Shown one piece after another: positions 836 through 32,193 of a stretch of DNA of 35,874 nt. The DNA is taken from the NCBI GenBank assembly GCA_945923475.1, contig CAMELE010000001.1, positions 1 through 35,874 of the forward strand, read 5' to 3'. How positions within the stretch are numbered: the first letter of the stretch is position 1; the number at the start of each line of letters is the position of its first letter. The position numbers and the translations under genes are program-made. The notes beneath the pieces are model-generated. The model was not told the DNA's origin. It did no database searches and worked only from the letters and a program-made list of their open reading frames with translations. Source of the stretch: an uncultured Mollicutes bacterium (GTDB lineage: Bacteria > Bacillota_I > Bacilli_A > Acholeplasmatales > Anaeroplasmataceae).

Positions 836-925
836 TGGTCGGAGATGAGGGAATCGAACCCACTCGAGCGACTAAGCGCACCGGTTTTACAGACCGGGGT
901 GTCTACCTTATCACGTTAATCTCCG
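836..925 (-). tRNA. tRNA-Tyr (anticodon GTA), class II with long variable arm, CCA encoded
   Basis: Hand fold of the reverse complement. Acceptor CGGAGAT/ATCTCCG. Anticodon stem CCGGT/ACCGG with loop CTGTAAA. T-arm GTGGG-TTCGATT-CCCTC, then A + CCA. Confidence 0.75.
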
Positions 926-1207
926 AAATATATTTCTTATAATCTTTAATAAAACGCCAATAATCTTCTCGATTTTATTTTGAGGGTTTTAATTAGGTTA
1001 ACCCACAACCTCCGATAGTGTGTCTACTGGACCAAGGAAATACCCGATCGCCGTATTTCGCTCTTTAAAAGATGGACGCTTCTAATCCTACTTCCTATCG
1101 TATAAAAGGACTTATCAATGACTTTTATACATATTGCCTTTATTACCTTTATAAACAAATTAGCATTACCCAGTGCTACCGCGAGGAGGTTTTGTTTTTA
1201 GCACCGC

Positions 1208-1294
1208 AGCCCCGCTGGGATTCGAACCCAGAACGACTCCTTCAAAGGGAAAACGGTTTTAGAGACCGCCGTGTTAACCGTTACACTACGGGGC
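1208..1294 (-). tRNA. amber suppressor tRNA (anticodon CTA, reads UAG); class-II-like long variable arm
   Basis: Reverse complement gives D-arm TAGTGTAACGGTTAACAC, anticodon stem GCGGT/ACCGT, loop CTCTAAA (U33, anticodon CUA, A37), ~20-nt variable region, T-arm CTGGG-TTCGAAT-CCCAG. Acceptor GCCCCGT/GCGGGGC carries a 1-nt register irregularity. Confidence 0.75.
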
Positions 1295-1299
1295 AATAA

Positions 1300-2055
1300 T
1301 TATATTAAATCCCACTCTTCATCAGAATAAGAATTAATATCTCTTTTTGTTGAGGGAAGACTATATCCTCTACACCATTTACGGATAGTGTTATCATTAA
1401 CTCCAAACTTTTTACCTAAAGAAGTAAAAGTCTATCCACGAATTAAATTTTTTAATTCATTTCTATCTGGTCGAGCTACTTTTCTATCTTTTAAATGATT
1501 ACAAGCACTACAACGAATACTTTTGTTATCAGATAATTCTTTTCCACAATCACAACAGTATCGTTTTTTTCTACGGTTATTTCTTAAAGGATAAGTATAT
1601 CCTTCTAATCGACGACTTTTACCGTGATTTATTGTAGAAATAACATCTTGCCCTACATTAAACTATTTTGCTATATTTCCTTGAGAAATATTAGAATTTT
1701 GTAATAAATCATAAATCTCTAATAATTGTTGTTTAGAAATTTTAGACTAACTATTACAATTATTTTGTCCACCAGTTGTTTCATTATAACCATTAAAATA
1801 AGTATCAAATAACTAAATATAATACTTTTCCTTTTGGTCTAATTCTTTTTGAGAACATTCTTCTAAAATCTCCCAAGTAAAACTATCTAATCCATATTTT
1901 CTAAAAGCTCTACATAAAGTTTTTTCATATTCTTCAGAATTAGGATTAAATGCTCTGCTTTTTTCTTTAGTCCATCTATTTTCAATATTGATAGACTATC
2001 CAATATAAGAATGATTATTTACTTTATTTGTAATTTTATAAATTCCACAACTCAT
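1300..2055 (-). CDS. GIY-YIG homing endonuclease (I-TevI-like, C-terminal zinc finger plus HTH), 251 aa, with five in-frame TAG codons
   Basis: Manual minus-strand translation: MSCGIYKITNKVNNHSYIG*SINIENRW...RYCCDCGKELSDNKSIRCSACNHL...GVNDNTIRKWCRGYSLP. One TAG falls in the canonical YIG-Q-S motif. 756 nt, an exact multiple of 3, ends TAA. Absent from the standard-code ORF track. Confidence 0.8.
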
Positions 2056-2142
2056 TAAACTACCTTCTTTCTTTTTCTATTATATATAAAAATTAAAAGA
2101 AGATAATAATAAAGATTCGACCTCGAAATTGAATTTTTTTAT

Positions 2143-2265
2143 TAATTCAACTTACGGAGTTTTCGCTTCATCTTATTAATGAGGCGCTGATTCATAACTT
2201 CACTATGGGAATACAACTTCGCAATGCGATTTTCATAATGCTCTTTAGTGCGATAAATCATAATT
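2143..2265 (-). CDS. small hypothetical protein (40 aa, basic)
   Basis: AAGGAG RBS 8 nt before the ATG. Followed on the minus strand by the inverted repeat TTGAATT...AATTCAA plus T-run, terminator-like, at ~2100-2140. Confidence 0.35.
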
Positions 2266-2390
2266 TTTCTCCTTAAATTGAATTTATGATCCAGAGAGGG
2301 TTATCTGCGTCATCTAGACCCAATTTTTATTCATTATATATTCTTTCAGAGTAGCAAATTCTTAATTAAATATATAACTTAGCAGAACTC

Positions 2391-2490
2391 TGGTGGCACG
2401 GCCGGCTGGACTCGAACCAGCAGATGCAGGAGTCAGGGCTCAAAAGTTGGACTTGCACCAACATTCTCGGTTTTATAGGACCGGAAGCCT
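2391..2490 (-). tRNA. tRNA-like element: T-arm GCTGG-TTCGAGT-CCAGC and acceptor 3' strand + CCA are clear; 5' half not confidently folded (possible Leu-CAA-like loop); may be degenerate
   Basis: Reverse complement ends ...GCTGGTTCGAGTCCAGCCGGCCGTGCCACCA. No complementary 5' acceptor strand found upstream even allowing G-U pairs. Confidence 0.3.
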
Positions 2491-2840
2491 ACTAACAGAA
2501 CTTATATAATACTACTTAACCCCGTCATATTATATAACCCATTTAACTGATTTTGAGAAAGTCCTGTGCCTTACCATTTTGGCGACGGCCGTATAAACAA
2601 GACACCAAAGAATTTCAATCAATTCATTTCATCTATTTGTCGATTAATTCTCTCTTACCCCAAACAGACTACACCTTCAACAGGCAATCAAAAATTATTT
2701 GTAAAACAATATCTCTGTATCTTCTGTTATAGAAAATTCGCAGTTTGTGGTGTCTTTGATATATTTAAGACGCGAACGCCGTGCTCAACCATTACACTAA
2801 TTACAGCTGATTATTGGAATCGAACCAATCCTGCGTTCGG

Positions 2841-2916
2841 TGGTACGGGATGAGGGACTCGAACCCACGACCTCCTGAATGTAAATCAGATGCGCTACCA
2901 GCTGCGCTAATCCCGT
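2841..2916 (-). tRNA. tRNA-Val (anticodon TAC), CCA encoded
   Basis: Acceptor ACGGGAT/ATCCCGT, D-arm GCGC-AGCTGGTA-GCGC, anticodon stem TCTGA/TCAGG with loop TTTACAT, T-arm GTGGG-TTCGAGT-CCCTC (U50-U64), A73 + CCA. Confidence 0.8.
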
Positions 2917-2925
2917 ATAAGCAAC

Positions 2926-3129
2926 TCAATTAATGAAAGTTGCTACAAAATCCTTTTCGAGCATATACATGGGAGCAGAAGCAAAACCGCCATCATCAAT
3001 CTTACAATACAGAATAATATTTTCTGCATTGGGATTGGAAGCACGAGTAATTGCTTTTACAAGCTCCTTATTATCAATGGAATTATAATAGCAACCAAAA
3101 TCAATAGAAGTCTTTTTCATTTTTTTCAA
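2926..3129 (-). CDS. hypothetical protein (67 aa)
   Basis: ORF track. The promoter/leader cassette sits immediately upstream (3130-3190). Confidence 0.6.
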   Translation of the reverse strand: MKKMKKTSIDFGCYYNSIDNKELVKAITRASNPNAENIILYCKIDDGGFASAPMYMLEKDFVATFIN

Positions 3130-3153
3130 TTCCTTTCTTAACTTTCTATATAT

Positions 3154-3182
3154 ATTATATTATATTTTTTATAAAAAATCAA
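3154..3182 (-). promoter_or_regulatory. sigma70-like promoter, minus-strand TTGATT-N17-TATAAT, one copy of the repeated promoter/leader cassette
   Basis: Minus-strand reading: -35 TTGATT (plus aatcaa 3177-3182), 17-nt spacer, -10 TATAAT (plus attata 3154-3159), then leader ATATATAGAAAGTTAAGAAAGGA and the ATG. Confidence 0.6.
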
Positions 3183-3213
3183 AAAAGTTATTTCAAACTA
3201 GACACATTAGAAA

Positions 3214-3290
3214 CATAATTTTAAGTTATGTGCGTTAACCAATTTCGCCAAAACCCCAATTGGAGTTTACAGGATTTGAACCTGTATACC
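3214..3290 (-). tRNA. apparently circularly permuted tRNA-Leu(UAA)-like unit: [variable region + T-arm + acceptor 3' strand + A] - ATT - [acceptor 5' strand + D-arm + anticodon arm]
   Basis: Minus-strand reading GGTAT ACAGG-TTCAAAT-CCTGT AAACTCC A | ATT | GGGGTTT T G GCG-AAATTGGTTAA-CGC A CATAA-CTTAAAA-TTATG. The acceptor halves pair 7/7 with one G-U. Only ~37 nt precede the T-arm and no T-arm follows the anticodon arm, so a normal gene order is impossible. Confidence 0.45.
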
Positions 3291-3322
3291 TTTCTAATGA
3301 AAGAATTGCTGTATGTGTCTTA

Positions 3323-3350
3323 TGGTCCGAGTGAGACGACTTGAACGTCC
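3323..3350 (-). tRNA. orphan tRNA 3' fragment (T-arm GGACG-TTCAAGT-CGTCT + CACTCGG + A + CCA) with no 5' half
   Basis: Only 35 nt separate it from the 3' end of the upstream tRNA-Pro. No complementary 5' acceptor strand found. Confidence 0.35.
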
Positions 3351-3385
3351 GGCTGTCAGTTCAAATCAAACTAAACAGCGCTTCG

Positions 3386-3459
3386 TGGTAGAAGACGTGG
3401 GATTCGAACCCCTATTCAAGCTCCCAAAGCTAGCGTGTTACCATTACACTACATCCTCT
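3386..3459 (-). tRNA. tRNA-Pro (anticodon TGG), CCA encoded
   Basis: D-arm TAGTGTAATGGTAACACG, anticodon stem CTAGC/GCTTG (one mismatch) with loop TTTGGGA (G37). T-arm GGGG-TTCGAAT-CCC. Acceptor pairs with G-U wobbles; +/-1 register ambiguity. Confidence 0.65.
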
Positions 3460-3469
3460 ATATTAAGCC

Positions 3470-3982
3470 TTATTTCAAAGGCTCTAATTTAAACTCTTCG
3501 GTTAAACGATATAAATGTAAAGAAATTTTACGATGACAATTAGGACACAAAATACATAAATTATTTGGATCATTATTGTCATGGTTTTCATCTTTATGAT
3601 GAACTTCTAAAATGCGTTTTTCTTCATCATAGCCGCATACAGCACATTTATGTTCATATAAATCAAAAGCAGTTTGACGATAATTATTTCCTTTAAAAGC
3701 AAAATGATTTTCGCCACTTTTAAATAAGGTATTATTCATACCATTAGCACAACTTCTACTACAATAAACATTTCCAGTAATAGAACGCTTTAATTCTGAA
3801 TTTCTTTTCCAAACTTCTTTTCCACAATTCGCACAATGACATAATGTGCTTCCTTTATGACTGCGACATTCAGATGAACAATAAAATGCTGAATTCTCTT
3901 TTAATTTAGCATTATATCGCTTTAATTCAATCTCATATTCTTTATTACATACTACACATTTCACTTTTACCATTGTCGGCAT
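3470..3982 (-). CDS. HNH homing endonuclease, standard code, about 170 aa
   Basis: ORF track 3470..4045. HNH motif EVHHKDENHDNNDPNNLCILCPNCH plus several CxxC zinc-finger pairs. Start refined to the ATG preceded by AAAGGAG (MPTMVKVKC...); ATGs at 4000 or 4045 are alternatives. Confidence 0.8.
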   Translation of the reverse strand: MPTMVKVKCVVCNKEYEIELKRYNAKLKENSAFYCSSECRSHKGSTLCHCANCGKEVWKRNSELKRSITGNVYCSRSCANGMNNTLFKSGENHFAFKGNNYRQTAFDLYEHKCAVCGYDEEKRILEVHHKDENHDNNDPNNLCILCPNCHRKISLHLYRLTEEFKLEPLK

Positions 3983-4096
3983 ATAACCAACTCCTTTCAT
4001 TATTATATGAAAGTTAGGTAAGAATGATTGTTCTCGAAAGACCAAAATCTGTCCAAAAGATTATGTGAACCCGATCTAGCGATCGAGCGATCGCAA

Positions 4097-4173
4097 TGGT
4101 TGTCTGGGAGGGACTCGAACCCTCGATCTCCCGATTATCAGTCGGACGCTCTAACCAACTGAGCTACCAAACA
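4097..4173 (-). tRNA. tRNA-Ile (anticodon GAT), CCA encoded
   Basis: Acceptor TGTTTGG/CCAGACA, D-arm GCTC-AGTTGGTTA-GAGC, anticodon stem TCCGA/TCGGG with loop CTGATAA, T-arm GAGGG-TTCGAGT-CCCTC. Confidence 0.8.
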
Positions 4174-4380
4174 TTATTTATTTTGAGAAAGAAGTAAAAG
4201 AACTTTTTCATCTTGATAATCCGGAAGACCAATTTCGTAGAAAATTTCTGCGATATAATAATCAGTTCTTCCATCTCTTTTGGACAAATAATTACAAAGA
4301 ATTTCAGCATTTTCTTTGAATTTGAAATCTATGGGAAAATACAAAGGACTATTTTGAATTGCAACACGATAACAAAGCAT
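4174..4380 (-). CDS. hypothetical protein (68 aa)
   Basis: ORF track. AAGGAG RBS upstream of the ATG at 4380. Confidence 0.55.
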   Translation of the reverse strand: MLCYRVAIQNSPLYFPIDFKFKENAEILCNYLSKRDGRTDYYIAEIFYEIGLPDYQDEKVLLLLSQNK

Positions 4381-4397
4381 AGTATTTCTCCTTATTA

Positions 4398-4488
4398 GAA
4401 CAAGACACCATTGATTTACGGCGTTCTACCATTGAACTAATCCCCTATATAGTGGCAGGGGATGAAAGGAATCGAACCTACACTTCCG
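4398..4488 (-). tRNA. second permuted-like tRNA unit: T-arm + acceptor 3' strand ATCCCCT + G + CCA, then CTATAT, then a perfectly complementary acceptor 5' strand AGGGGAT + canonical D-arm. Anticodon arm irregular (6-nt loop)
   Basis: Minus-strand reading ...GTAGG-TTCGATT-CCTTT C ATCCCCT G CCA CTATAT AGGGGAT TA GTTC-AATGGTA-GAAC G CCGTAAATCAATGG.... Too little room upstream of the T-arm for a 5' half. The downstream half runs into the RBS of the 4174..4380 gene. Confidence 0.35.
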
Positions 4489-4575
4489 GCTTGGTATGCA
4501 ATCAAAATTGCTGTTAATGTCTTTAACTTATATATTTATTATATAATATTTTTTTATAAATGTCAAAAAGTTTTA

Positions 4576-5433
4576 TTAAGTAGTTAAAAACGCATTATAA
4601 CCTTTTGATTTTAAATCATTAATTACTTTTATAGCATTTGCTTTGACAGAAAAAGCACCAACTTGAACTTTATAATACTTGCCAATCTTACGAATATAAG
4701 CATTTTTATAACCTGCTCCAATAGTATCAGGTAATGCTTTAATTTTCAATAAGAAAGCGTCAGCATTAGATTTAGATCCAAAAGCACCAAGTTGAACGCG
4801 ATAAATAATTTGCGGTTTAAGGTAAATAGCCACTACATTATCGACAGCGCGATTGCCCCAATCTTTAGTGATACAAGCTCCATTATGAAGAACTTTCGTG
4901 CTACCACCGCCATCAAGGTTAATTGCATAATCAACTTTTAATGCTAAAAGTAAATTCTACATTTCTGTAAATGCCATGCCTGGCTTTTCAATAGCAATTA
5001 AATAAATATTAAATTTATTATATGCTAATACCGTTCTACGAGCTTTATAATTTAACTCTTTGGCATAAGTAATTTGAGTTTTTTTGCCAGCCTTAATTAA
5101 TACTGGATAACCGCTAACAAAATCTTCAAACTTTTCTGTTCCAATTATACCGTATTTCAATTCACCATTAATGATACCAAAGCCTTCTTTATAAGAAGAA
5201 GTGGAATTAATGATTATACCATTATCCATATAATTAAAACAAGTGCTGCCATTATCCATGCTAAAGAAACCACCATTAGTTAAAATAGTAGGTTTAACCG
5301 CGCAACTATCATAGTATTGCTTTAAAGTCTAACGCGGTTGAGCGCATAAGGCCATATCTAACTTACTAATTTCTTCTTTTGGAATTTCAATAATTTTTAC
5401 ATATGAATAATTGCTTGGAGAATATATCTTCAT
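4576..5433 (-). CDS. phosphodiester-glycosidase-like (DUF2233-type) protein with two C-terminal SPOR-like peptidoglycan-binding repeats; 285 aa with two in-frame TAG codons
   Basis: With TAG as sense, track ORFs 4957..5259 and 4576..4833 join upstream sequence into one 858-nt frame. Hallmarks: ILTNGGFF and NLDGGGST (DUF2233-like), YRVQLGAFGSKSNA and YKVQVGAFSVKANA (SPOR-like). ATG at 5433 after AAGGAAGG. Confidence 0.65.
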
Positions 5434-5493
5434 CAAATCACCTTCCTTAATATTTTTAAGGTTTCAATGACTTTTATTAATGAAATATACCCT

Positions 5494-5570
5494 TGGCATC
5501 CCCGGAGCGATTCGAACGCCCGACACAAGGATTAGAAATCCTTTGTTCTATCCAACTGAACTACGGGGAC
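5494..5570 (-). tRNA. tRNA-Arg (anticodon TCT), CCA encoded
   Basis: Acceptor GTCCCCG/CGGGGAT, D-arm GTTC-AGTTGGATA-GAAC, anticodon stem AAGGA/TCCTT with loop TTTCTAA, T-arm GGGCG-TTCGAAT-CGCTC. Confidence 0.8.
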
Positions 5571-5686
5571 AAATTCGCTACAAGACTCTTCATTCTTCTT
5601 AATCCCATATTAAGCGCTTATTGCAAGCAAAAAAGTTGCTGTATGAGTCTTTATTTAGTTAAGAAAGGAAATACCATGATAATGGT

Positions 5687-5775
5687 AGGGCGAGGGAGAC
5701 TCGAACTCTCCATTGAGCGATTTGGCCTGTGAATTAGGCCTTGAACCTAAATCTTCGTAGTACTACCGTTATTTT
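5687..5775 (-). tRNA. tRNA-like element, fold unresolved (alternative T-arms GAGAG-TTCGAGT-CTCCC and TTAGG-TTCAAGG-CCTAA; CCA ends present)
   Basis: Hand folding gives two competing structures. No single canonical cloverleaf could be built. Confidence 0.3.
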
Positions 5776-5842
5776 ACCATTTAAACTACTCACAGATAAG
5801 TCGCCTAGTCTAGCCTTTGACTTACCACCCCAGATCGGCGAG

Positions 5843-6361
5843 TCAAGAAACCCGCGATTTCAACCAATAAACTGACATTCGTTCATTAGGCTGATTTGTC
5901 ATTTCACCTTTTGGCCCTAAGATTTCAGGATAAGGCCAAACATATTCATTAGCAGTCTTTTCATCAGGAAATTCAATTTCTGCATAGCAAAATTTCCCAT
6001 CAACTTCACTAATTTCAATCAAACGATTAGGATTGTAAATATCTTCAACCATGTAATAATCCTTAATAATAGGATTATAACCTTCATGTCGAGTTTTCTT
6101 AATCATTTCATAGAAATCTGAGGAAATTGGCGTTTCAATTTCTTCACGAGAAAGACCATCACCATATTTATAAGTCATCTTATAATCAACTTGATTGGTT
6201 TTAAGATTAATGGCTTTCCGCACTCGAATTTCTTCAAGCACTTTACCATCATTATCAAAGTCAATCATAAGATAGATTTGTTCAATTTTCTTATGACGGA
6301 CACTTTTTTCCTTCATCCAAGAAGGAATATTTTTAATATCAAACTTACGTTCGATTTCCAT
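5843..6361 (-). CDS. CYTH-domain (triphosphate-tunnel metalloenzyme / CyaB-like) protein, 172 aa
   Basis: N-terminal MEIERKF... is the CYTH EXEXK signature. Ends in TGA. Confidence 0.65.
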   Translation of the reverse strand: MEIERKFDIKNIPSWMKEKSVRHKKIEQIYLMIDFDNDGKVLEEIRVRKAINLKTNQVDYKMTYKYGDGLSREEIETPISSDFYEMIKKTRHEGYNPIIKDYYMVEDIYNPNRLIEISEVDGKFCYAEIEFPDEKTANEYVWPYPEILGPKGEMTNQPNERMSVYWLKSRVS

Positions 6362-6500
6362 TTTTATACTCCTTTAACTCTTGGAAATAAGTAAGAATCT
6401 ACTCATTTTTATCAATAATCTCTGGATTATAATTATAATACTTCATAGAAGCAATCTAATCTTTCCATTCAGCGATTAACTAATCTACGGTATAATTCAT
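6345..6500 (-). CDS. small hypothetical protein (51 aa) with three in-frame TAG codons
   Basis: GGTGAAATT then ATG. Continuous only if TAG is sense. Overlaps the CYTH gene start in the +1 frame. Confidence 0.3.
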
Positions 6501-6519
6501 AATTTCACCTACTTACTAT

Positions 6520-6595
6520 TGGGGTGACTGGCGGACTTCGAATCCGCGACATTCTGAGCCACAATCAGACGCTCTACCAACTGAGCTACAGCCAC
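6520..6595 (-). tRNA. tRNA-His (anticodon GTG), C73 + CCA encoded
   Basis: Acceptor GTGGCTG/CAGTCAC, D-arm GCTC-AGTTGGTA-GAGC, anticodon stem TCTGA/TCAGA with loop TTGTGGC, T-arm GCGGA-TTCGAAG-TCCGC. Confidence 0.8.
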
Positions 6596-6596
6596 A

Positions 6597-6684
6597 TGGT
6601 GCTTTTGATGAGACTCGAACTCATATGAACTTTACGTCCACTAGATTCTTAGTCTAGCATGTATACCAATTCCATCACAAAAGC
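6597..6684 (-). tRNA. class II tRNA-Leu (anticodon read as AAG; A34 is unusual), CCA encoded, abuts tRNA-His
   Basis: Acceptor GCTTTTG/CAAAAGC (perfect). Anticodon stem CTAGA/TCTAG with loop CTAAGAA. 16-nt variable arm. T-arm ATGAG-TTCGAGT-CTCAT. Confidence 0.6.
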
Positions 6685-6736
6685 ATTTTCTTATTTTTTA
6701 TATATTTATTATACAATATTTTTTTTATAAAGTCAA

Positions 6737-6780
6737 AAGGGGCCGATGTAAAGTATATTTACTTTACATCGGCCGTCGCG
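6737..6780 (-). terminator. rho-independent terminator hairpin for the AAA+ gene upstream
   Basis: GGCCGATGTAAAGTA-TATT-TACTTTACATCGGCC perfect inverted repeat, followed (minus-strand reading) by a T-rich run and the promoter cassette at ~6690-6735. Confidence 0.6.
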
Positions 6781-7920
6781 TTAATAAAGATACTGTTCAA
6801 TAGTATTTGCGACCTTAGTTAAAACAACAGACTTAATCACGCGCTCATTTTTAGCCTTTTCGATAGCTTCCTTACGCTTTTCTACATTGCTGATCGTCCA
6901 AAAGTCATCAGGATCAATGTAAATTTCAACCTTTTTCGGATCGGCCGTAATCATACCCTTTTCAATCTTAATTGAATCAGGAGTCAAGGCATAACGAATA
7001 GTCTTACTATCTGAGGCATAACCATCATACCATCTTTTATGATCGGCATTAGGATTGCTAAACAAATTAACTGAAACACCATAGGTATTATACACATCAC
7101 CATTTACCGTAGTAATAGTGATATTGAAACGAACATTGGAAGTTTGAGAAATATTAAGATCTTCAAGAGTTTCTGCCACACCATAACCCTGATTAAGTTC
7201 AAAAGCAATCGCGCGAAGATAATCATAAGTCATATTGGTAGTACGAGAAAAATTCACAATATCCTTAATACCACTCGCATATTTAGGCTTAACCTTATCA
7301 GTAAGATATTCTACAATCTCTTCCTCTGTTGGATAAGTAATCTTAAAATGATAATGAAAACGACCAGGCCGATTCAATAGATAAGTGCTAAGTCGATCAA
7401 CTTCATTACAAGTAATAACGAAAAGCTTCTTACCATTATCAAGACCATCAAAAAGAGAAAGCATTTCCTCCTGCGGAGAGGGGCCCGCATGGTCGTCAGA
7501 GTTATTAGAGAAATTCTTTTCAAACTCATCAAAAATAATTACGACTTCTTGCTCGATACTGGAAATAAAATCTGCGATACCGGGCACATAAGTATTAGCC
7601 AAGAGAACAGGATATCCGCTTTCAATAGCGTGATGAGAAAGAATACGAGCAAACAATGACTTGCCAATACCCTTCTGACCACTTAAAATAACACCAAGAT
7701 TACGGTCTGAATACTTAAAAGAATTAAGCACCTTATTGACTTTAACTTCGTGATTACCATAAATTTTTTCCTCATTGACCGCAAGGTCTGGACGAGAAGA
7801 AAGATAAAAACCTGCCATTTTATTAAAGCAGATTTCAAAAGACATAAGCGGAAGTCGCTTATAAGTCTTAACGTCCTCGCCATAAATCTGATAGCGAGAA
7901 CCAGCATTTACAATATTCAT
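6781..7920 (-). CDS. AAA+ family ATPase, about 379 aa
   Basis: Walker A GQKGIGKS, Walker B VVIIFDEFE. Start refined to MNIVNAG, preceded by AAGAGGA. The longer track ORF start overlaps tRNA-Ser. Confidence 0.8.
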   Translation of the reverse strand: MNIVNAGSRYQIYGEDVKTYKRLPLMSFEICFNKMAGFYLSSRPDLAVNEEKIYGNHEVKVNKVLNSFKYSDRNLGVILSGQKGIGKSLFARILSHHAIESGYPVLLANTYVPGIADFISSIEQEVVIIFDEFEKNFSNNSDDHAGPSPQEEMLSLFDGLDNGKKLFVITCNEVDRLSTYLLNRPGRFHYHFKITYPTEEEIVEYLTDKVKPKYASGIKDIVNFSRTTNMTYDYLRAIAFELNQGYGVAETLEDLNISQTSNVRFNITITTVNGDVYNTYGVSVNLFSNPNADHKRWYDGYASDSKTIRYALTPDSIKIEKGMITADPKKVEIYIDPDDFWTISNVEKRKEAIEKAKNERVIKSVVLTKVANTIEQYLY

Positions 7921-7947
7921 ACTTAATCCTCTTAATTTAAAATTTAA

Positions 7948-8035
7948 TGGCGGAGCCACCGCGAGTCGAACGCGGACTACCTATAAAGGTAGGAAAGCTT
8001 AGCAGGCTTTTGTGATACCATTACACCATAGCTCC
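7948..8035 (-). tRNA. tRNA-Ser (anticodon GCT), class II, G73 + CCA encoded
   Basis: Acceptor GGAGCTA/TGGCTCC. Anticodon stem AAAGC/GCTTT with loop CTGCTAA. Long variable arm CCTACC...GGTAG. T-arm CCGCG-TTCGACT-CGCGG. Confidence 0.8.
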
Positions 8036-8039
8036 ATTA

Positions 8040-8273
8040 TTTACACCTATATATGATTAGTTTATGCTTAATACTATATCCACAATAACTATGCTAAGTG
8101 CGATAATTACTAAAAATATAATACTTTCTATCGGATTTAATATTACCAAATAAATTTAAAACTCTCAATCCCTGTTTATAATGAGAAGTTTTATTATTTA
8201 CTTGATAATTAGCCCAATCAAGAATTTCTTGACCGCTAAAACAAGGATTTTTATAACTTAAAATATTTTTCAT
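8040..8273 (-). CDS. small hypothetical protein: 77 aa if the internal TAG is read as sense, 58 aa if TAG terminates
   Basis: GGAGG RBS then ATG at 8273. One in-frame TAG. The extended frame ends TAA next to tRNA-Ser. Confidence 0.4.
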
Positions 8274-8682
8274 ATTCTACCTCCTCTGCTTTTCTGGACT
8301 TGGAACCAGCCTATGGTAGCATTAGGTAGGCGACCGCACTTATCGTTCGCTAGGACAAAATTCACGCTCATCGCCAAAAATCAAATCATCAACATCTTTA
8401 AACATATCAGACAATCCTCCTTTTTTATTTAATTTTATGAAACAAAATAGAGAGTAGAAAAACAATTCATTTCTATGGAAGTGAGAGAAAACAACAATCT
8501 ATATATCAAACGAAAGGGGAAATCAAACAGAAAGATAAGTAAGAAAATGAACTAGATGTAAAAGACTCTCTCTATTGTATAGTCTTTTATTTCTATATAT
8601 TTAAATATATAGAAGAGTAGCCTTTCTAACAGGCATTCCAACAGCCTCGAGCAGCAAAGAGGTTCCTCATTTGTTGGTCTTT

Positions 8683-8758
8683 TGGTGGGCGGAGACAGAA
8701 TCGAACTGCCGACGCTAGGATCTTCAATCCTACGCTCTACCAGCTGAGCTATCCGCCC
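8683..8758 (-). tRNA. tRNA-Phe (anticodon GAA), CCA encoded
   Basis: Acceptor GGGCGGA/TCCGCCC (perfect), D-arm GCTC-AGCTGGTA-GAGC, anticodon stem TAGGA/TCCTA with loop TTGAAGA, T-arm GGCAG-TTCGATT-CTGTC. Confidence 0.85.
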
Positions 8759-8972
8759 ATAATATTTATATTGCTACGATTCCCGATTCTCCACGTAGTC
8801 ATTCTTCCTTTAAAATTTACTAAAAGAATGTGATATTTTATTTATCGTCCTACATCAACAATATAAATAGAACAAGACGCTATAAACAATCCTAAGCATA
8901 TGTATTTCGTACATTGATGTTTTAAAGTTTGCTGTTAGCGCCTTAATTATTCAAAAAGAAAGGAAAGATAAA

Positions 8973-9176
8973 TTATGCGTTTGCGGGTTCCGCGTTCTTC
9001 GGTCTGCGGAACTTTACATAACGCTCACCATCATGTCGGGACATCCAAATGATTGTGCCATCCTTAAAATGGAAATCATAAGTAAAATCCTTATCCTGTT
9101 CATCAATCTGATGGCAAAAGCCCTTACCGTACTTCTTAGAATAAACCTTGTCGCCGGGCTTAAATTTAAACTTCAT
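8973..9176 (-). CDS. hypothetical protein (67 aa)
   Basis: ORF track. Confidence 0.5.
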   Translation of the reverse strand: MKFKFKPGDKVYSKKYGKGFCHQIDEQDKDFTYDFHFKDGTIIWMSRHDGERYVKFRRPKNAEPANA

Positions 9177-9221
9177 TTAGATATCTCCTTTTGGATTATT
9201 TTAATTTACAAGACACAAATG

Positions 9222-9294
9222 AAATATTTGTTGGAATTGAACCAACTACAGTTTGTTTAACAGACAAATGCTCTACCAAATGAGCTAAAATATT
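9222..9294 (-). tRNA. tRNA-Asn (anticodon GTT) with an unusually AT-rich acceptor stem
   Basis: Acceptor AATATTT/AAATATT, D-arm GCTC-ATTTGGTA-GAGC, anticodon stem TTTGT/ACAAA with loop CTGTTAA, T-arm GTTGG-TTCAATT-CCAAC. Confidence 0.7.
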
Positions 9295-9370
9295 TTCAAT
9301 AGAAAATGATTGCTGTGTGTGTCTTTATTACTGTGATACCTCTTATTAAGAGGGCTTACGGCGTTACGCC

Positions 9371-10012
9371 TTAAATATATTTCCAGATATAACCATAAGC
9401 AGATTTTCGTTTACCATTCGCGCATTCTGCTATATGACTTCTAACTCCAGAACTATAATTTAAACATTTTTTATTTTTATAACACCACTATCCAGCTTCA
9501 GCTACTGATTCAAATGAATTAAGTAAATCTCCATTTTTATCATATTGTTTAATTGCTTTAGATTTTTCTTTTCTTAAATTTTCATTCGCTCGATTAATTA
9601 TCTAAATACAATTTTCTTTTGCTATTGAATAAACTAAATCTAGACTACAATGAAATAGTTCAGCTATTTCTATTGGACGAGGATTTATTTTTAATGCTTT
9701 TAAAATTTCTTTATGGTCATAAATTAATTTGCCATCGCCACCTTTAGTAGCATTATATCCATTCTAATAAGCATTTAATTTTTCAATCCAATAAATTTCT
9801 CTTTCTTCTGGATCGTCAGTCTCTTCAATTAGCTCAATATGAAAATGTTCTACTCCATATTTTCGCATTGCCGAATATAATGGACGTTTTTCATTGCGCT
9901 CTCTAAAAGCATCTTTACAATGTTCTTTAAAACGCTTCTCAATAAAAAACTCAGTTTTTCCAATATAAATTTTCTAATTTACATCATTGATAATTTTATA
10001 AATATATGCCAT
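9371..10012 (-). CDS. GIY-YIG homing endonuclease, 213 aa, with five in-frame TAG codons
   Basis: Minus-strand translation MAYIYKIINDVN*KIYIGKTEFFIEKRFKEHC...YWIEKLNAY*NGYNATKGGDG.... 642 nt, an exact multiple of 3, ends TAA. Invisible in the standard-code ORF track. Confidence 0.8.
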
Positions 10013-10146
10013 ATTCTTATCATCCTCCATTATTTTATGGAGTTTTTGGTTGCTAAATTATCTAAACGCAACCAAAATTTTAGTCCCACCGTTAGTTTAA
10101 ACAGAGCATACCATCGTGAAGGTGTGTGGTGACATTTTATGCTCCT

Positions 10147-10215
10147 TGCGGTCGGGCGATTCGAACGCCGTTTTTAGCTTATGAGGCTAACGAGCTACCT
10201 TTGCTCCACCACCGC
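10147..10215 (-). tRNA. tRNA-Met-like (anticodon CAT); short, 4-bp T-stem
   Basis: D-arm GAGC-AAAGGTA-GCTC, anticodon stem TTAGC/GCTAA with loop CTCATAA, T-arm GGCG-TTCGAAT-CGCC, acceptor GCGGTGG/CGACCGC with one mismatch. Confidence 0.55.
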
Positions 10216-10217
10216 AA

Positions 10218-10293
10218 TGGTCGGTCAAATTAGAATCGAACTAATATCCCTTGTCTTATGAGAACAATACTCTACCAATTAAGCTATTGACCG
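10218..10293 (-). tRNA. tRNA-Met (anticodon CAT; could be elongator Met or a lysidine-type Ile2), CCA encoded
   Basis: Acceptor CGGTCAA/TTGACCG (perfect), anticodon stem TTGTT/GACAA with loop CTCATAA, T-arm ATTAG-TTCGATT-CTAAT. Confidence 0.75.
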
Positions 10294-10455
10294 AAAATGG
10301 GATAGATATAATATTCGCGACCATTATATCTATTGGACTTTCTAACCCATCGTCCCAAAATTCTTAATAGACCTCATCAAATGGCCAACTTTTGTAGAGG
10401 CTTTTGTGCGACTCTGCATGCGCACTCACATAGACATAAGAATGATGCCAACGTA

Positions 10456-10533
10456 TGGCGACCCAGGCGGGGCTCGAACCCGCGGTCTTAGCCGTGACAG
10501 GGCTACGTGATATTCCAGCTTCACTACTGGGCC
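10456..10533 (-). tRNA. tRNA-Asp (anticodon GTC), G73 + CCA encoded
   Basis: Acceptor GGCCCAG/CTGGGTC, anticodon stem TAGCC/GGCTA with loop CTGTCAC, T-arm GCGGG-TTCGAGC-CCCGC. Confidence 0.8.
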
Positions 10534-10536
10534 ATA

Positions 10537-10614
10537 TGGTACTCCTGGTGGGATTCGAACCCAACGACTCTAGCGTGAAAGGCTAGTGACTTAAGCCCAC
10601 TTGTCGACAGGAGC
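10537..10614 (-). tRNA. tRNA-Glu (anticodon TTC), CCA encoded
   Basis: Acceptor GCTCCTG/CAGGAGT, anticodon stem CTAGC/GCTAG with loop CTTTCAC, T-arm TTGGG-TTCGAAT-CCCAC. Enlarged D-loop. Confidence 0.7.
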
Positions 10615-10684
10615 ATATTATTTATTTTATTCTACATTAGTAAAAACAGGATATACCACGTGAAGGTTGTAGAATTTATATCCC

Positions 10685-10758
10685 TGACCTCAGCCAGATT
10701 CGAACTGACATCTCAACCTTGAGAGGGTTGCCACCTAAGCCAATTAGTAGATGAGGCC
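10685..10758 (-). tRNA. tRNA-Glu (anticodon CTC); atypical D-arm
   Basis: Acceptor GGCCTCA/TGAGGTC, anticodon stem CAACC/GGTTG with loop CTCTCAA, T-arm GTCAG-TTCGAAT-CTGGC, A73. Confidence 0.6.
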
Positions 10759-10762
10759 ATAT

Positions 10763-10903
10763 TTAAGCACATCTATCATAATCTTGATTTTTGTGCTTTT
10801 GTTTTCGCTTAAACGAACCTTTACCTTTCTTCGCAGGAACTTTAAATCCTCTGCGCCGAAATAATTGAAGATATTCATTAAGCTCTTCCTTGTTTTTTTT
10901 CAT
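10763..10903 (-). CDS. small basic protein (46 aa, Lys/Arg-rich)
   Basis: ATG directly after the stop of the acidic peptide ORF. Sequence MKKNKEELNEYLQLFRRRGFKVPAKKGKGSFKRKQKHK.... The longer track ORF 10763..11011 overlaps the acidic peptide in another frame. Confidence 0.4.
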   Translation of the reverse strand: MKKNKEELNEYLQLFRRRGFKVPAKKGKGSFKRKQKHKNQDYDRCA

Positions 10904-10907
10904 ATAA

Positions 10908-11018
10908 CTTTTATTCACGGTATTCATCCTCATCTTCATAAAGGGAAAGATCCTGATAAGCAGCATATTCATCACTTTGAATCTCGCAAGCATAGCTTTC
11001 ATAGTAATCATTATACAT
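10908..11018 (-). CDS. small acidic peptide (36 aa, Tyr/Glu/Asp-rich)
   Basis: Lies immediately after the promoter/leader cassette at 11022-11090, ...GAAAGGAAGATTTAAATT then ATG. Sequence MYNDYYESYACEIQSDEYAAYQDLSLYEDEDEYRE. Confidence 0.4.
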
Positions 11019-11198
11019 AATTTAAATCTTCCTTTCTTAACTTTCTATAAATATTATAACTTATTTTTTATAAAATGTCAAAAGATTAAAAGACCAACCA
11101 AGAAGCGATATTTGTTAACGATGGTCGCCACTCCACCGCCGTCAATACTCATAAATGCTTATCATTTTCACATTAACCTACTAATTAAAGGAGGTGAC

Positions 11199-11286
11199 TG
11201 GTGCTTCGAGAGAGACTTGAACTCTCACCATCCATTCGGATAATCGGGTTTGAGCCGATCGCGTCTGCCAATTCCGCCATCAAAGC
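11199..11286 (-). tRNA. tRNA-Leu (anticodon CAA), class II, CCA encoded
   Basis: Acceptor GCTTTGA/TCGAAGC, anticodon stem ATCGG/CCGAT with loop CTCAAAC, long variable arm, T-arm GAGAG-TTCAAGT-CTCTC. Confidence 0.75.
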
Positions 11287-11289
11287 ATA

Positions 11290-11390
11290 ACTAAGAGGAT
11301 TTTTAAGAAGAATCCTCAAAACTTCTTTCTAATCTAATGGAAGTTTTAAGAAGATCTTCCAACTTCTTTCTAATCTTAATCGCACTTTAG
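11290..11390. repeat. tandem duplication of a ~48-bp unit, each unit a hairpin followed by AACTTCTTTCTAATCT
   Basis: Hairpin 1 GAGGATT-TTTAAGAAG-AATCCTC. Hairpin 2 GGAAG-TTTTAAGAAGAT-CTTCC. Confidence 0.6.
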
Positions 11391-11837
11391 GGCGGCCGTC
11401 CCTCCGCGGCGTCACGGTAAATATAATATAATTTTTTATCCAAAAAAAGGTTATGAGCCAAAAAGGGATAATTATTTAAGACATAATTATCAAGACTACG
11501 CTACTTTTCAAATTTTCTCTTCTTAGTGGGAAAAACTTTCTTAGCGCTGAAACCAAAATCACTATTAGCATTTTGTATATATTATCTTATTGTATATAAG
11601 TTTTATTAATATACCTTATCTATTATATCGTTTAGTATATTGTATTAAGTTTTAATTAATAAGATAATATTTCTGGCTGCTTTTATCACCAATCATATAA
11701 TCGGTTATATCAGGCAATGCTCCTAAACTTGCGGTTTATTCAACCGCCGTGCTTACTCTTTACACCATATAACCATTTCTATTCACTATTAGCGTTACCC
11801 ATCATCTACCTCGTGGCGGTTATGAATTTTAGATGAC

Positions 11838-11913
11838 TGGACCTCGTGAGAATCGAACTCACCTGATTTTCTGTGTGCAAGACAGACGACCACGCCATGC
11901 AGTCCCGAAGCCC
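11838..11913 (-). tRNA. tRNA-Ala (anticodon TGC)
   Basis: Acceptor GGGCTTC/GAGGTCC (G-U wobbles), D-stem GACT/GGTC, anticodon stem TCTGT/ACAGA with loop CTTGCAC, T-arm GTGAG-TTCGATT-CTCAC, A73. Confidence 0.65.
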
Positions 11914-11988
11914 GAAATGCGACTTATTTATGTATAGATGGAGTCGCCAACCACCATTTGAGTTTTACCAGATATCCCGAGGAGGGAT

Positions 11989-12064
11989 TGGTGCTGGAGA
12001 AAGGACTCGAACCTTCAGATTAATGATCCTAAATCATTCGCCTATGCCAATTCGGCTACACCAG
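11989..12064 (-). tRNA. tRNA with anticodon TAG (formally Leu) but a short class-I variable arm; CCA encoded
   Basis: Acceptor GCTGGTG/CTCCAGC (one mismatch), anticodon stem AATGA/TCATT with loop TTTAGGA, T-arm GAAGG-TTCGAGT-CCTTT. Confidence 0.55.
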
Positions 12065-12135
12065 CAAATAAAGAATTTTATAACCCACATCGCGAAGATT
12101 CGAACTTCGTCAATCGTTAGGACTCGAACCAACTT
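12065..12135 (-). tRNA. tRNA-like element with two tandem T-arm-like hairpins (CGAAG-TTCGAAT-CTTCG and GTTGG-TTCGAGT-CCTAA); no canonical cloverleaf found
   Basis: Hand folding failed to find matching acceptor or anticodon arms. Confidence 0.25.
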
Positions 12136-12305
12136 TTACTCTTCTGGATTCCCAGAACCCATGGCCTTGATTAATGTGAGTATAGCCACTATTTCACAAT
12201 AAGTTTTACTTCGCTTCCTTATATTTAGTCGGGCGTTTTCCGCAAGCCACATACTCTTTCGATCGGTGGTAGTTTAAACTTACAAAATCCGTGTTAACGC
12301 CCCAA

Positions 12306-12380
12306 TGGCGGGTGATGTAGGAATTGAACCTACCTAAGGCAGATTAACAGTCTGCTGCCTAACCACTAGGCTAATCACCC
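12306..12380 (-). tRNA. tRNA-Asn (anticodon GTT), second copy, CCA encoded
   Basis: Acceptor GGGTGAT/ATCACCC (perfect), D-arm GCCT-AGTGGTT-AGGC, anticodon stem GCAGA/TCTGC with loop CTGTTAA, T-arm TAGG-TTCAATT-CCTA. Confidence 0.8.
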
Positions 12381-12532
12381 ATAAAAGAAGGACTTTTTAA
12401 AATCCTTACTTTATATATTTATTATATTATATTTTTTTTAAAAAATCAACTTTTCTCTTTTACCCAAGTTTTTTATTTTCTTTTTTCTTTCTTCGTCTTA
12501 TATAAATATTATATAATATTTTTTATAAAATG

Positions 12533-12715
12533 TCAATAAGGTCTTTGAATTGGCATTAAATCATCTTCTGAAAGAAGCCACTTTTCACCATGTTCATCAA
12601 GGACTTCAATCTGATAATTTAATACTCGAATGACAGTGCATTTAAGATACTGTCTACGATAACAACGGCCGCGATAAGGGACAAAACAATAAGAATTACC
12701 AACTTCAATATTCAT
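12533..12715 (-). CDS. hypothetical protein (60 aa)
   Basis: ORF track. Promoter/leader cassettes on both sides. Confidence 0.5.
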   Translation of the reverse strand: MNIEVGNSYCFVPYRGRCYRRQYLKCTVIRVLNYQIEVLDEHGEKWLLSEDDLMPIQRPY

Positions 12716-12805
12716 TATTTATTTTCTCCTTTCTCAACTTTCTATATATATTATATTATATATTTTTAATAAAATCAAAAAAGTTCTTTTTGTTTAAGTA
12801 GATTA

Positions 12806-12890
12806 AATGGCACCAGGGGTACGAGTCGAACGCATTACCACGAGATTTGGAGTCACGCCCCAGTCCCTCCGGGATTAAGGTTCCCCTGAT
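12806..12890 (-). tRNA. tRNA-like element (~83 nt): acceptor ATCAGGG/CCCTGGT + G + CCA and D-arm plausible; anticodon arm unresolved
   Basis: T-arm-like TGCG-TTCGACT-CGTA. No clean 5-7-5 anticodon stem-loop. Confidence 0.3.
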
Positions 12891-12912
12891 ATAAAAACAA
12901 GACCTTAACTTT

Positions 12913-12983
12913 GTCCGGAAAATGGATTTGAACCATTAACTTAATCTTGAAGGATTATGACCTAACCTTTAGTCTATTCTGGA
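12913..12983 (-). tRNA. tRNA-like element with a 6-nt anticodon loop (CTTCAA; would read UCA if a 7th nucleotide is recruited); possibly a pseudogene
   Basis: Acceptor TCCAGAA/TTCCGGA (one A-C mismatch), D-arm GACT-AAAGGTTA-GGTC, stem TAATC/GATTA, T-arm AATGG-TTCAAAT-CCATT. Confidence 0.3.
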
Positions 12984-13061
12984 AGTTATTTTTGCTGTAA
13001 AGGTCTTTTTTTATTTTATAAATATATTATATATTATTTTTTTTAAAATGTCAAAAAATTT

Positions 13062-32119: not shown

Positions 32120-32193
32120 AAATAAAATCTCCTTTTACAAGTTTTTGCGACTCCCCTTAATATTAAGGAAATTTTATTTATATTTTATGAAAC

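Follow-up and report, generated by a model that had tools for sequence, protein, structure and literature searches.

Circularly permuted tRNA genes bounded by a conserved hairpin element in a phage tRNA array

Introduction

Circularly permuted tRNA genes, in which the 3' half of a tRNA is encoded upstream of its own 5' half, occur in the red alga Cyanidioschyzon merolae, a few other algae and one archaeon; to our knowledge they are confined to a handful of eukaryotic and archaeal lineages equipped with a splicing endonuclease, and we know of no such enzyme in bacteria. The only tRNA introns known to us in bacteria and their viruses are the self-splicing group I introns, which are longer than 200 nt and reside in the anticodon loop. 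Here we describe two units of permuted order, one resembling a gene for tRNA-Leu(UAA) (unit 1) and one resembling a gene for tRNA-Gly(ACC) (unit 2), both read on the minus strand of a 36 kb window (the whole stretch of DNA analysed, positions 1 to 35,874 of contig CAMELE010000001.1, to which all window coordinates refer), together with the phage family to which they belong and the conserved element that bounds its members, a terminal helix (P1) accompanied by the sequence ACAGCAA.

Bacteria offer a precedent for the permuted order in the two-piece transfer-messenger RNA (tmRNA), whose circularly permuted ssrA gene places the T-arm and the acceptor 3' strand with CCA before the acceptor 5' strand, and whose pieces are never ligated. 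Two families of small RNA share further parts of the architecture. In YrlA (RF02553), a T-arm, a loop-closed acceptor and a D-arm follow one another inside a terminal stem formed by the 5' and 3' ends (PMC4201824). The Dictyostelid Class I RNAs (RF01414), whose genes have been reported from Dictyostelia only and carry a DUSE promoter ~60 nt upstream, are ~60 nt long, start with AAG, end with CUGU, and possess a short covarying terminal stem with an unstructured motif of ~11 nt beside its 5' strand (PMC7919456).

Results

Two units of permuted order on the minus strand

A note drawn up earlier from the letters of this DNA had proposed that a T-arm, an acceptor 3' strand, a linker, the acceptor 5' strand, a D-arm and an anticodon arm with anticodon UAA follow one another within 3214-3290. 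Each of these elements was found, on the minus strand, and the observation of permuted-order units on that strand was confirmed (Table 1); unit 1 in full extends from 3321 to 3199, beyond the segment first reported. The note was also right that there is no space for a 5' half upstream of the T-arm, as the nearest preceding CCA (3324-3322) is only 36 nt away. The second case that it had put forward, with the same architecture and a perfect acceptor pair (ATCCCCT-G-CCA-CTATAT-AGGGGAT, 4463-4440), was found as described, with a T-arm before it and a D-arm after it; the full extent of this unit 2 is 4523-4402, again beyond the 4398-4488 initially given. Counting the discriminator, the spacer between the acceptor strands is 4 nt in unit 1 and 10 nt in unit 2.

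The anticodon arm of unit 1 is intact 3' of the D-arm, and the break falls in the variable region; to judge from the sequence, a 3-bp D-stem, an 11-nt D-loop, a long variable arm and A73 give the unit the look of a class II leucine tRNA, tRNA-Leu(UAA). Its minimum free energy (MFE) fold, obtained independently with ViennaRNA, is the proposed structure (z = -3.9). In unit 2, the anticodon arm is split over the transcript ends, such that CCG (4421-4419) and the segment 4499-4486 together form CCG/GC-AUACCAA-GCCGG (the slash marks the join), a perfect 5-bp stem with a 7-nt loop. This split accounts for the irregular anticodon loop attributed to the second case: the arrangement that the note had seen is real, while the irregularity disappears in the joined arm, which is canonical.

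As encoded in the genome, neither unit was called by ARAGORN, and the canonical tRNA model of Rfam (RF00005) remained below its gathering score of 29, with 25.4 bits at 3183-3257 (the 5' half of unit 1 together with extraneous sequence downstream) and 14.5 bits at 3261-3328; neither tool, then, placed a complete canonical tRNA at either unit that the note might have missed. With the order restored, the four arms and the tertiary nucleotides (U8, G18G19, T-loop UUCRA, U33 and a purine at 37) were all present in both units, and ARAGORN read the joined, acceptor-opened sequences as a full-length class II tRNA-Leu(taa) for unit 1 and as a 75-nt tRNA-Gly(acc) for unit 2, although this test is partly circular because the joins had been picked to form an anticodon arm.

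A strict scan of the window for the architecture returned two sites, exactly units 1 and 2, both on the tRNA strand. In simulated sequence, two or more such hits arose in 14% of runs, and a looser first scan gave ~4.7 random hits per window; motif statistics alone are therefore weak, and the comparative evidence is decisive. A covariance model (R1) was built from 30 units on other contigs; neither the window nor its close ortholog contributed to it. R1 matched both units from end to end, with 73.5 bits for unit 1 (E 2e-13, model positions 1-127) and 78.3 bits for unit 2 (E 2e-14).

Both units are bounded by the same frame, in which a leader AAGACA..ACAGCAA and a trailer UGUCUU-GUU are able to pair. 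They lie in an array of 21 tRNAs called by ARAGORN, all of them minus-strand genes within 836-12983, and 16 of these 21 ordinary tRNAs have an encoded CCA. Leu-AAG, Leu-CAA and Leu-UAG are present among the ordinary tRNAs; there is no Leu-UAA and no Gly.

The promoter-like repeat that precedes unit 2 (TTGACA, 17 nt, TATAAT) occurs in eight copies on the minus strand (3182-3130, 4566-4514, 6736-6684, 11081-11029, 12449-12397, 12536-12484, 12778-12726 and 13054-13002), found before small open reading frames (ORFs) and RNA units across the tRNA array. Two orphan segments on the same strand (5710-5683 and 3350-3322) each comprise a T-arm and an acceptor 3' strand followed by CCA; a 5' half is recognisable for neither. 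In one relative, contig L021, a recognisable tRNA (6365-6437) lies upstream of the unit 1 ortholog.

A covarying family in viral contigs

The viral contigs of IMG/VR were searched with the pattern ACAGCAAY, 10-40 nt, GGTTCRAWTCC, from which P1 was absent; at least 120 contigs matched, and the family counts given below rest on loci fetched from the matches listed. Among the matches listed, 40 non-identical hits showed the full order of T-arm, closed acceptor and D-arm. A perfect complement (at least 7 nt) of the 9 nt preceding ACAGCAA was located just before the conserved G in 30 of these 40 units, as against 8% with shuffled leaders. In an alignment of 33 units, 88% of cells were paired, compared with 59% after shuffling and ~40% with the partners slid, and none of 500 shuffles reached the observed score; every P1 pair (9/9) and every acceptor pair changed on both sides, and the acceptor helix was 96% paired across the family. 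P1 had played no part in selecting the sequences. Dozens of phage contigs that are unrelated to one another keep the permuted layout, and all of its helices covary.

Joining the two ends, that which follows the D-arm and that which follows the ACAGCAA linker, yielded a canonical anticodon arm in 19 of 34 permuted units; an arm that needed both ends was formed in 17 of the 34, versus 15.7% with mismatched partners. The break point lay at positions 26-29 in 14 of the 19 and at position 43 in three, unit 1 among these. ARAGORN called all 19 in-silico matured units as full-length tRNAs, and none of the unrearranged genomic units. The acceptor loops were enriched in N-CCA (7/34 and 8/40 units in two counts, against ~1.6% by chance). 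A hairpin directly after the D-arm was present in only 4 of 34 units, and the family had at first been read as a non-decoding mimic; this reading was revised, because in most members the arm is split across the transcript ends, and a search confined to the region after the D-arm had looked in the wrong place.

Both permuted units were kept in all ten related contigs (~160-197 kb). The normally ordered ortholog for which the earlier note had suggested a search was present at neither locus, the permuted order being retained in 10 of 10 close relatives. The nearest relative (L243) differs from unit 2 at 2 of 130 positions and has the anticodon GCC, the standard glycine anticodon, instead of ACC; in nine related contigs, UGA stands where unit 1 has UAA.

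A collection of annotated phages gave ordinary tRNA matches only and no relative of the units. Matches in a scan of cellular genomes were mostly due to chance, with a few true members on contigs assigned to Clostridia, Lachnospiraceae and Chitinophagales; that these members fall mostly in contigs of Clostridia/Lachnospiraceae metagenome-assembled genomes fits the promoters and Shine-Dalgarno sites of the window.

Normal-order tRNA genes interrupted by the closed element

Many Rfam tRNA hits in the fetched loci were 106-143 nt long; these are tRNA genes of normal order with the P1/ACAGCAA element inserted into them in a circularly permuted form. In these genes, the element stands between exon 1 (acceptor 5' strand, D-arm and positions 26-28) and exon 2 (positions 29-31, anticodon loop, positions 39-43, variable loop, T-arm and acceptor 3' strand). 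Within it, a G(UU) loop connects the P1 3' strand to the P1 5' strand, after which comes ACAGCAA; the linker to exon 1 is A-rich and that to exon 2 U-rich. The closed element measures ~40-50 nt, and 40 interrupted genes with a paired acceptor, D-arm and T-arm were collected. Under strict rules, deletion of the element restored a canonical anticodon arm in 21 of the 40, representing 16 different anticodons; restored arms include CU/CGC-CUUUUAA-GCGAG (Lys), CG/GGU-CUGUUAA-ACCCG (Asn) and GG/GGA-CUUGUAA-UCCCC (Thr). The insert follows position 28 in 14 of the 21 restorable genes and position 27 in four, and lies after positions 27-29 in 19; this site is also the break point of most permuted units. 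The restorable arms and the shared site together indicate that each permuted unit is an element-bearing tRNA gene in genuine circular permutation, with the opening in the element's terminal loop, and the relation between the two kinds of gene is exact.

The conservation and covariation of the family, the closed insert in genes of normal order and the 19 of 19 ARAGORN calls thus bear out the central claim of the note, that a 3' half precedes the 5' half belonging to it, and support the assignment of units 1 and 2, as circularly permuted tRNA genes, to a family widespread in phages.

Much of this arrangement is shared with C. merolae, in which the 3' half likewise stands upstream of the 5' half on one strand, a short spacer separates the acceptor strands, the precursor termini pair, and tRNA genes with inserts at unusual positions are found in the same genomes or lineages, the break point of the permuted genes corresponding to the position of the insert. 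In contrast to those eukaryotic and archaeal genes, the present ones belong to bacteriophages and have a 7-9-bp helix, ACAGCAA and a 3' G(UU) rather than a bulge-helix-bulge; they are preferentially broken in the 5' strand of the anticodon stem (27-29), and a circular intermediate is predicted for them.

Two further genes of normal order deserve mention. An interrupted gene on the minus strand of contig L070 (oriented index 2495) has a restored loop CUUUAAA with anticodon UUA, that of a potential ochre (UAA) suppressor. In the window, ARAGORN missed a tRNA-Glu(UUC)-like gene at ~2593-2389 (minus strand), with acceptor ACGGCCG/CGGCCGU, a D-arm and the anticodon stem CAGGA/UCCUG; its anticodon loop holds an insert of ~128 nt, devoid of ACAGCAA and shorter than typical group I introns.

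Other cargos of the frame

P1 covaries among the copies of the frame within the window as well (AAGACAC/GUGUCUU, AAGACUC/GAGUCUU and AAGACCUU/AAGGUCUU); its sequence is variable save for a G:C at the third pair, the conserved motif being ACAGCAA. Of 574 ACAGCAA sites in the fetched loci, 274 formed the series P1, ACAGCAA, cargo, P1' and G, compared with 37 when leaders were shuffled. After identical copies had been collapsed, 44 of the cargos were permuted tRNA-like modules and 8 were ordinary tRNAs, which left a remainder of 186; head-to-tail arrays were common. A hairpin of anticodon type (5 bp, with a 7-nt YU-NNN-R-N loop) was present in 68 of these 186, versus 6.9 +/- 2.5 after shuffling; most of the 68 contain textbook anticodon loops, with Lys-UUU and Asn-GUU the commonest.

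Tandem modules of ~60 nt occur at L011 2746-3048, and also in L014, L016, L018, L012 and others; their anticodons include Lys-UUU, Asn-GUU, Ser-GCU and Thr-CGU, and the gaps between neighbours are as little as 4-6 nt. One idea is that such anticodon stem-loops serve as decoys for anticodon-directed enzymes.

The short phage modules have in common with Class I RNAs an AAG start, a covarying 5'/3' stem, a motif bearing ACAGCAA, a variable middle, a CUGU end and a length of ~60 nt, and the Rfam Class I consensus GaUcuC-CUUACAGCAAU...GagAuC-UG aligns with them end to end. When the Class I model was applied, eight phage modules scored 22.8-28.4 bits against a gathering score of 41.5, every hit falling on a module; the window's own short module (8874-8944) gave no hit. 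Because the scores are below threshold and the window module is not matched, the link to Class I RNA is architectural only. Class I RNAs moreover differ in being eukaryotic, in using the DUSE promoter and in having no tRNA cargo described, whereas the phage units use sigma-70-like promoters or tRNA operons; the resemblance may reflect either homology or convergence.

The coordinates of both units and of the remaining frame copies are collected in Table 1. ARAGORN gives the tRNA at 12983-12913, enclosed by one of these copies, a two-base undetermined anticodon, and its anticodon loop is 6 or 8 nt long. A partial permuted-order module (T-arm, mini hairpin, D-arm and UUCG hairpin; R1 22.2 bits, E 0.017) lies at 2829-2781 on the minus strand, just 3' of tRNA-Val. 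At 2756-2597, also on the minus strand, a 9-bp long-range helix, AAGACACCA/UGGUGUCUU plus GUU, surrounds ~140 nt that lack ACAGCAA.

Table 1. Positions of the permuted units, their parts and further copies of the P1/ACAGCAA frame in the window.
Feature	Position	Strand	Basis or remark
Unit 1, whole permuted tRNA-Leu(UAA)-like gene, P1 5' strand to P1 3' strand	3199..3321	-	R1 73.5 bits; MFE fold; ARAGORN call on in-silico matured form
Unit 1 P1 5' strand AAGACACAU	3313..3321	-	pairs with 3207-3199; P1 covaries across family
Unit 1 invariant ACAGCAA	3306..3312	-	exact match; invariant in alignments A1 and A2
Unit 1 hairpin CUUUC-AUUA-GAAAG, read as class II long variable arm	3290..3303	-	sequence; in MFE fold; retained in ARAGORN Leu call for the long-variable-arm join
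Unit 1 T-arm ACAGG-UUCAAAU-CCUGU	3269..3285	-	sequence; architecture scan; R1 match
Unit 1 loop-closed acceptor: AAACUCC (3268-3262), A73 (3261), AUU (3260-3258), GGGGUUU (3257-3251)	3251..3268	-	7/7 pairs; G3:U70
Unit 1 predicted RNase P site	between 3258 and 3257	-	
Unit 1 D-arm, 3-bp stem GCG/CGC, 11-nt loop with GG	3232..3248	-	sequence; fold
Unit 1 anticodon arm CAUAA-CUUAAAA-UUAUG, anticodon UAA at 3223-3221	3214..3230	-	sequence; fold; ARAGORN on matured form
Unit 1 P1 3' strand AUGUGUCUA, then conserved GUU	3196..3207	-	repeat family D18
Unit 2, whole permuted tRNA-Gly(ACC)-like gene	4402..4523	-	R1 78.3 bits; ARAGORN 75-nt tRNA-Gly(acc) on in-silico matured form
Unit 2 sigma-70-like promoter: TTGACA 4566-4561, 17-nt spacer, TATAAT 4543-4538	4538..4566	-	member of 8-copy repeat family D1
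Unit 2 P1 5' strand AAGACAUUA (4523-4515) and ACAGCAA (4514-4508)	4508..4523	-	sequence; family P1 pairing
Unit 2 split anticodon arm, 3' part: positions 30-31 GC, loop AUACCAA (ACC at 4495-4493), positions 39-43 GCCGG	4486..4499	-	
Unit 2 T-arm and loop-closed acceptor: AUCCCCU, G73, encoded CCA (4455-4453), CUAUAU, AGGGGAU (acceptor stretch 4463-4440)	4440..4481	-	7/7 pairs
Unit 2 predicted RNase P site	between 4447 and 4446	-	
Unit 2 D-arm GUUC-AAUGGUA-GAAC (perfect), G26, anticodon-stem positions 27-29 CCG	4419..4437	-	
Unit 2 P1 3' strand UGGUGUCUU, then conserved GUU	4399..4410	-	repeat family D18
Shine-Dalgarno site and ATG of 67-aa ORF downstream of unit 2	4380	-	
Frame with short hairpin cargo, P1 AAGACUC/GAGUCUU covarying with other copies	5582..5651	-	R1 31.0 bits
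Frame with short hairpin cargo	8874..8944	-	R1 28.8 bits
Frame enclosing ordinary tRNA-Asn (9294-9221)	9210..9325	-	R1 33.9 bits
Frame enclosing odd tRNA (12983-12913), directly after promoter copy	12899..13007	-	R1 30.5 bits

Discussion

Permuted and hairpin-interrupted genes that share one conserved element point to an undescribed route of tRNA maturation in bacterial viruses. On the evidence of the genes, it is an even call whether the units mature by excision and ligation through a circular intermediate. By such a route, each unit would be transcribed as an RNA of ~122 nt, unit 2 from its own sigma-70-like promoter and unit 1 together with the upstream tRNAs. The transcript ends would pair as a P1 helix of 7-9 bp, with the invariant ACAGCAA unpaired inside and G(UU) at the 3' end, and this clamp would let the tRNA body fold despite the order of the chain, which runs from what remains of the anticodon or variable region through the T-arm and the two acceptor strands, 3' before 5' with a short loop between them, to the D-arm and the start of the anticodon stem. 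Removal of the element and joining of the flanking tRNA ends would give rise, in the permuted genes, to a circular intermediate, with predicted ligation junctions ...GAACGCCG^GCAUACCAAGCCGG in unit 2 and ...AAAAUUAUG(N0-6)^(N0-2)CUUUCAUUAGAAAGG in unit 1. RNase P and 3' trimming would then open the acceptor loop (unit 2 encodes CCA, which unit 1 would have to receive), and the products would be a continuous tRNA-Leu(UAA) of ~88 nt and tRNA-Gly(ACC) of ~75 nt. A precedent for the opening step is YrlA of M. smegmatis, whose closed 7-bp acceptor stem undergoes an RNase P cut and CCA addition in vivo (PMC4201824).

A broader proposal can be made only tentatively: the P1/ACAGCAA hairpin might represent a new short (~40-50 nt) intron-like class in phage tRNA genes, whose excision and exon ligation would proceed by a pathway new to bacteria and phages (ribozyme activity, or an endonuclease plus a ligase), in which case the permuted genes of the window would mature via circular RNA, the first to do so outside eukaryotes and archaea, and the element would be related in mechanism or descent to the Class I RNAs of Dictyostelium. 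Like group I tRNA introns, the element is an insert in bacterial or phage tRNA genes whose removal yields a functional anticodon arm; unlike them, it is ~40-50 nt long with another conserved core, lies mostly in the anticodon stem, and also exists in an opened (permuted) and a stand-alone form.

Several observations weigh against maturation by excision and ligation into working tRNAs. First, no bulge-helix-bulge was found at the junction of 3' half, linker and 5' half, where the earlier note had proposed to look for one by folding: the termini form a continuous 8-9-bp helix with a one-sided 7-nt bulge, ACAGCAA, and no 3-nt/4-bp/3-nt motif. The element is also far too short for a group I intron, and Pfam scans of the 20 ORFs of the window revealed no domain of an RNA ligase, RtcB, a kinase or an RNase (RNA endonuclease). 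Second, about half of the family cannot decode, having GNRA or 6-nt loops at the anticodon position or tetraloop-closed acceptors, and in unit 2 the anticodon ACC and the discriminator G73 are atypical for tRNA-Gly. Third, near-identical orthologs differ in anticodon (UAA/UGA, ACC/GCC and GGA/GUA; L243 versus the window; L021 and L244-L251; L064 and L071 versus L086), which is unusual for ordinary tRNAs and marks the anticodon as an apparent hot spot of change; and when complementarity to the ordinary tRNAs of the same array was assessed locus by locus, 7 of 22 were redundant against 6.4 expected. Finally, the P1/ACAGCAA frame also flanks an ordinary tRNA-Asn (9325-9210), an intron model leaves unexplained the stand-alone modules of ~60 nt, arranged in tandem and consisting of the frame and an anticodon stem-loop only, and the RNAs of Dictyostelium whose frame is similar are themselves stable end products (PMC7919456).

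These points lend weight to a serious, if improbable, rival, in which the units are non-decoding tRNA mimics mounted on a protein-binding or processing handle, in the manner of a Y RNA or Class I RNA. The RNA would then stay as transcribed, P1 and ACAGCAA would bind a factor of the phage or the host, and the tRNA-shaped cargo, with its elbow and anticodon loop, would engage or decoy tRNA-recognising enzymes, such as anticodon nucleases or modification enzymes. YrlA is the sole non-tRNA family of Rfam to match the units, the handle aligns end to end with Class I RNA in eight short modules, and the excess of anticodon stem-loop mimics among the non-tRNA cargos, the non-anticodon loops or tetraloop-closed acceptors of about half of the units and the changeable anticodon all speak for this reading. 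A YrlA-type Y RNA was indeed the first hypothesis for the identity of the units, and unit 2 aligns with YrlA in the order of its parts, as do other members of the family. It was demoted because the bit scores of 18-40 fall short of the gathering score of 69 (unit 2 at 18, unit 1 with no hit, and the best family member at 39.6), the Ro60-binding sequence GNCGAAN0-1G (PMC4201824) is absent from the phage units, no TROVE/rsr gene is found among the 20 ORFs of the 36-kb window (the relatives measure ~160-197 kb), and many phage members have a complete, restorable anticodon arm, which YrlA lacks. The same absences, and the position of every Rfam match under its gathering score, count against mimics in general. 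A mimic further leaves unexplained the restorable tRNA genes of 16 anticodon types with the element at one precise position of the stem, as well as the filling of gaps in the tRNA set of the window by units 1 and 2.

Ligation would be dispensable if the units gave rise to two-piece tRNAs or tRNA-like RNAs, an alternative that we regard as doubtful. The acceptor loop would here be opened by RNase P and 3' processing, and pairing in P1, in the acceptor stem and in the split anticodon stem would hold the pieces together; the element would either persist as an additional arm or be trimmed. Such an RNA would resemble two-piece tmRNA or cleaved YrlA. This would accord with the closed 7-bp acceptor with its encoded CCA, with the cleavage and subsequent CCA addition without ligation in YrlA, with the lack of a ligase or splicing enzyme among the 20 window ORFs, and with the break of unit 1, which falls in the variable region, a place at which a long arm is tolerated in class II tRNAs. 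In most members and in the genes of normal order, however, the element is placed in the 5' strand of the anticodon stem (after 27-29). An arm of ~45 nt or a nick in that strand is unlikely to be compatible with decoding, given the contacts between tRNA and ribosome, and this counts against a two-piece product. Although two-piece tmRNA is the bacterial precedent for the permuted order, the units have no evident tag reading frame or pseudoknots, and this holds even for unit 1, which carries G3:U70 and A73; ARAGORN found no tmRNA in the window, and the permuted-tmRNA model of Rfam gave one weak, chance-level hit at a different locus.

That the units are debris of recombination between tandem tRNAs, as the earlier note had alternatively suggested, or a chance pairing of two partial tRNAs (a 'dimeric tRNA' artefact), is very improbable: the array does hold GIY-YIG and HNH endonuclease genes and several tRNA fragments, and weak R1 hits fall at junctions of adjacent tRNAs (10289-10170 and 6632-6563), but the recurrence of this arrangement, its P1 and acceptor helices covarying, across dozens of unrelated contigs, R1 E-values of ~1e-13, the retention of both units in ten related phage contigs and the promoter of unit 2 itself speak against it, and conservation with covariation effectively refutes it.

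Circularly permuted tRNA genes are as such a known concept; new here are the domain of life, the junction element and the processing route that is implied. The note knew of no phage precedent, and in line with this we found neither a description of permuted or hairpin-interrupted phage tRNA genes in the literature nor, in Rfam 15, a family reaching threshold, with the qualification that the family may be among the 10,006 candidates of a survey of viral structured RNAs (PMC10690425). Should excision and ligation prove correct, a route of tRNA maturation or regulation not yet described would be shared by a large phage family; such a route would account for the gaps that standard finders leave in phage tRNA repertoires (in the window, Leu-UAA and the only Gly), and would provide a testable mechanistic context for the enigmatic Class I RNA motif of Dictyostelium. 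If the units are instead mimics or decoys, they would constitute a new kind of phage counter-measure against tRNA-recognising host factors.

Other features of the array

Matches to small ribozymes were encountered at several places. Sub-threshold matches to a hepatitis delta virus (HDV)-like ribozyme (F. prausnitzii; 26.1 bits against a gathering score of 44) lie on the minus strand at 1151-1205 and 11779-11837, directly 3' of a suppressor tRNA(CUA) and of a tRNA-Ala, respectively; this placement resembles that of the 'theta' ribozymes reported beside phage tRNAs. A match to the type-P1 twister ribozyme is found at 8278-8328 (minus strand; 41.1 bits against 67.2), with the same score at 2327-2377 of L021, and a hatchet ribozyme scores 68.6 bits, above the gathering score of 51, at L011 1620-1705, in a phage tRNA array that also contains frame modules. 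Phage tRNA arrays of this kind seem rich in small ribozymes.

The suppressor tRNA with anticodon CUA is located at 1206-1295, and multiple in-frame TAG codons occur in the minus-strand ORFs 1300-2079, 9371-10057, 28264-29163 and 31391-32134, two GIY-YIG homing endonucleases among them; together these suggest that TAG is read as sense in part of the genome. At the edge of the window, positions 1-66 consist of a tandem repeat of the hexamer GGATCA in ~10 copies.

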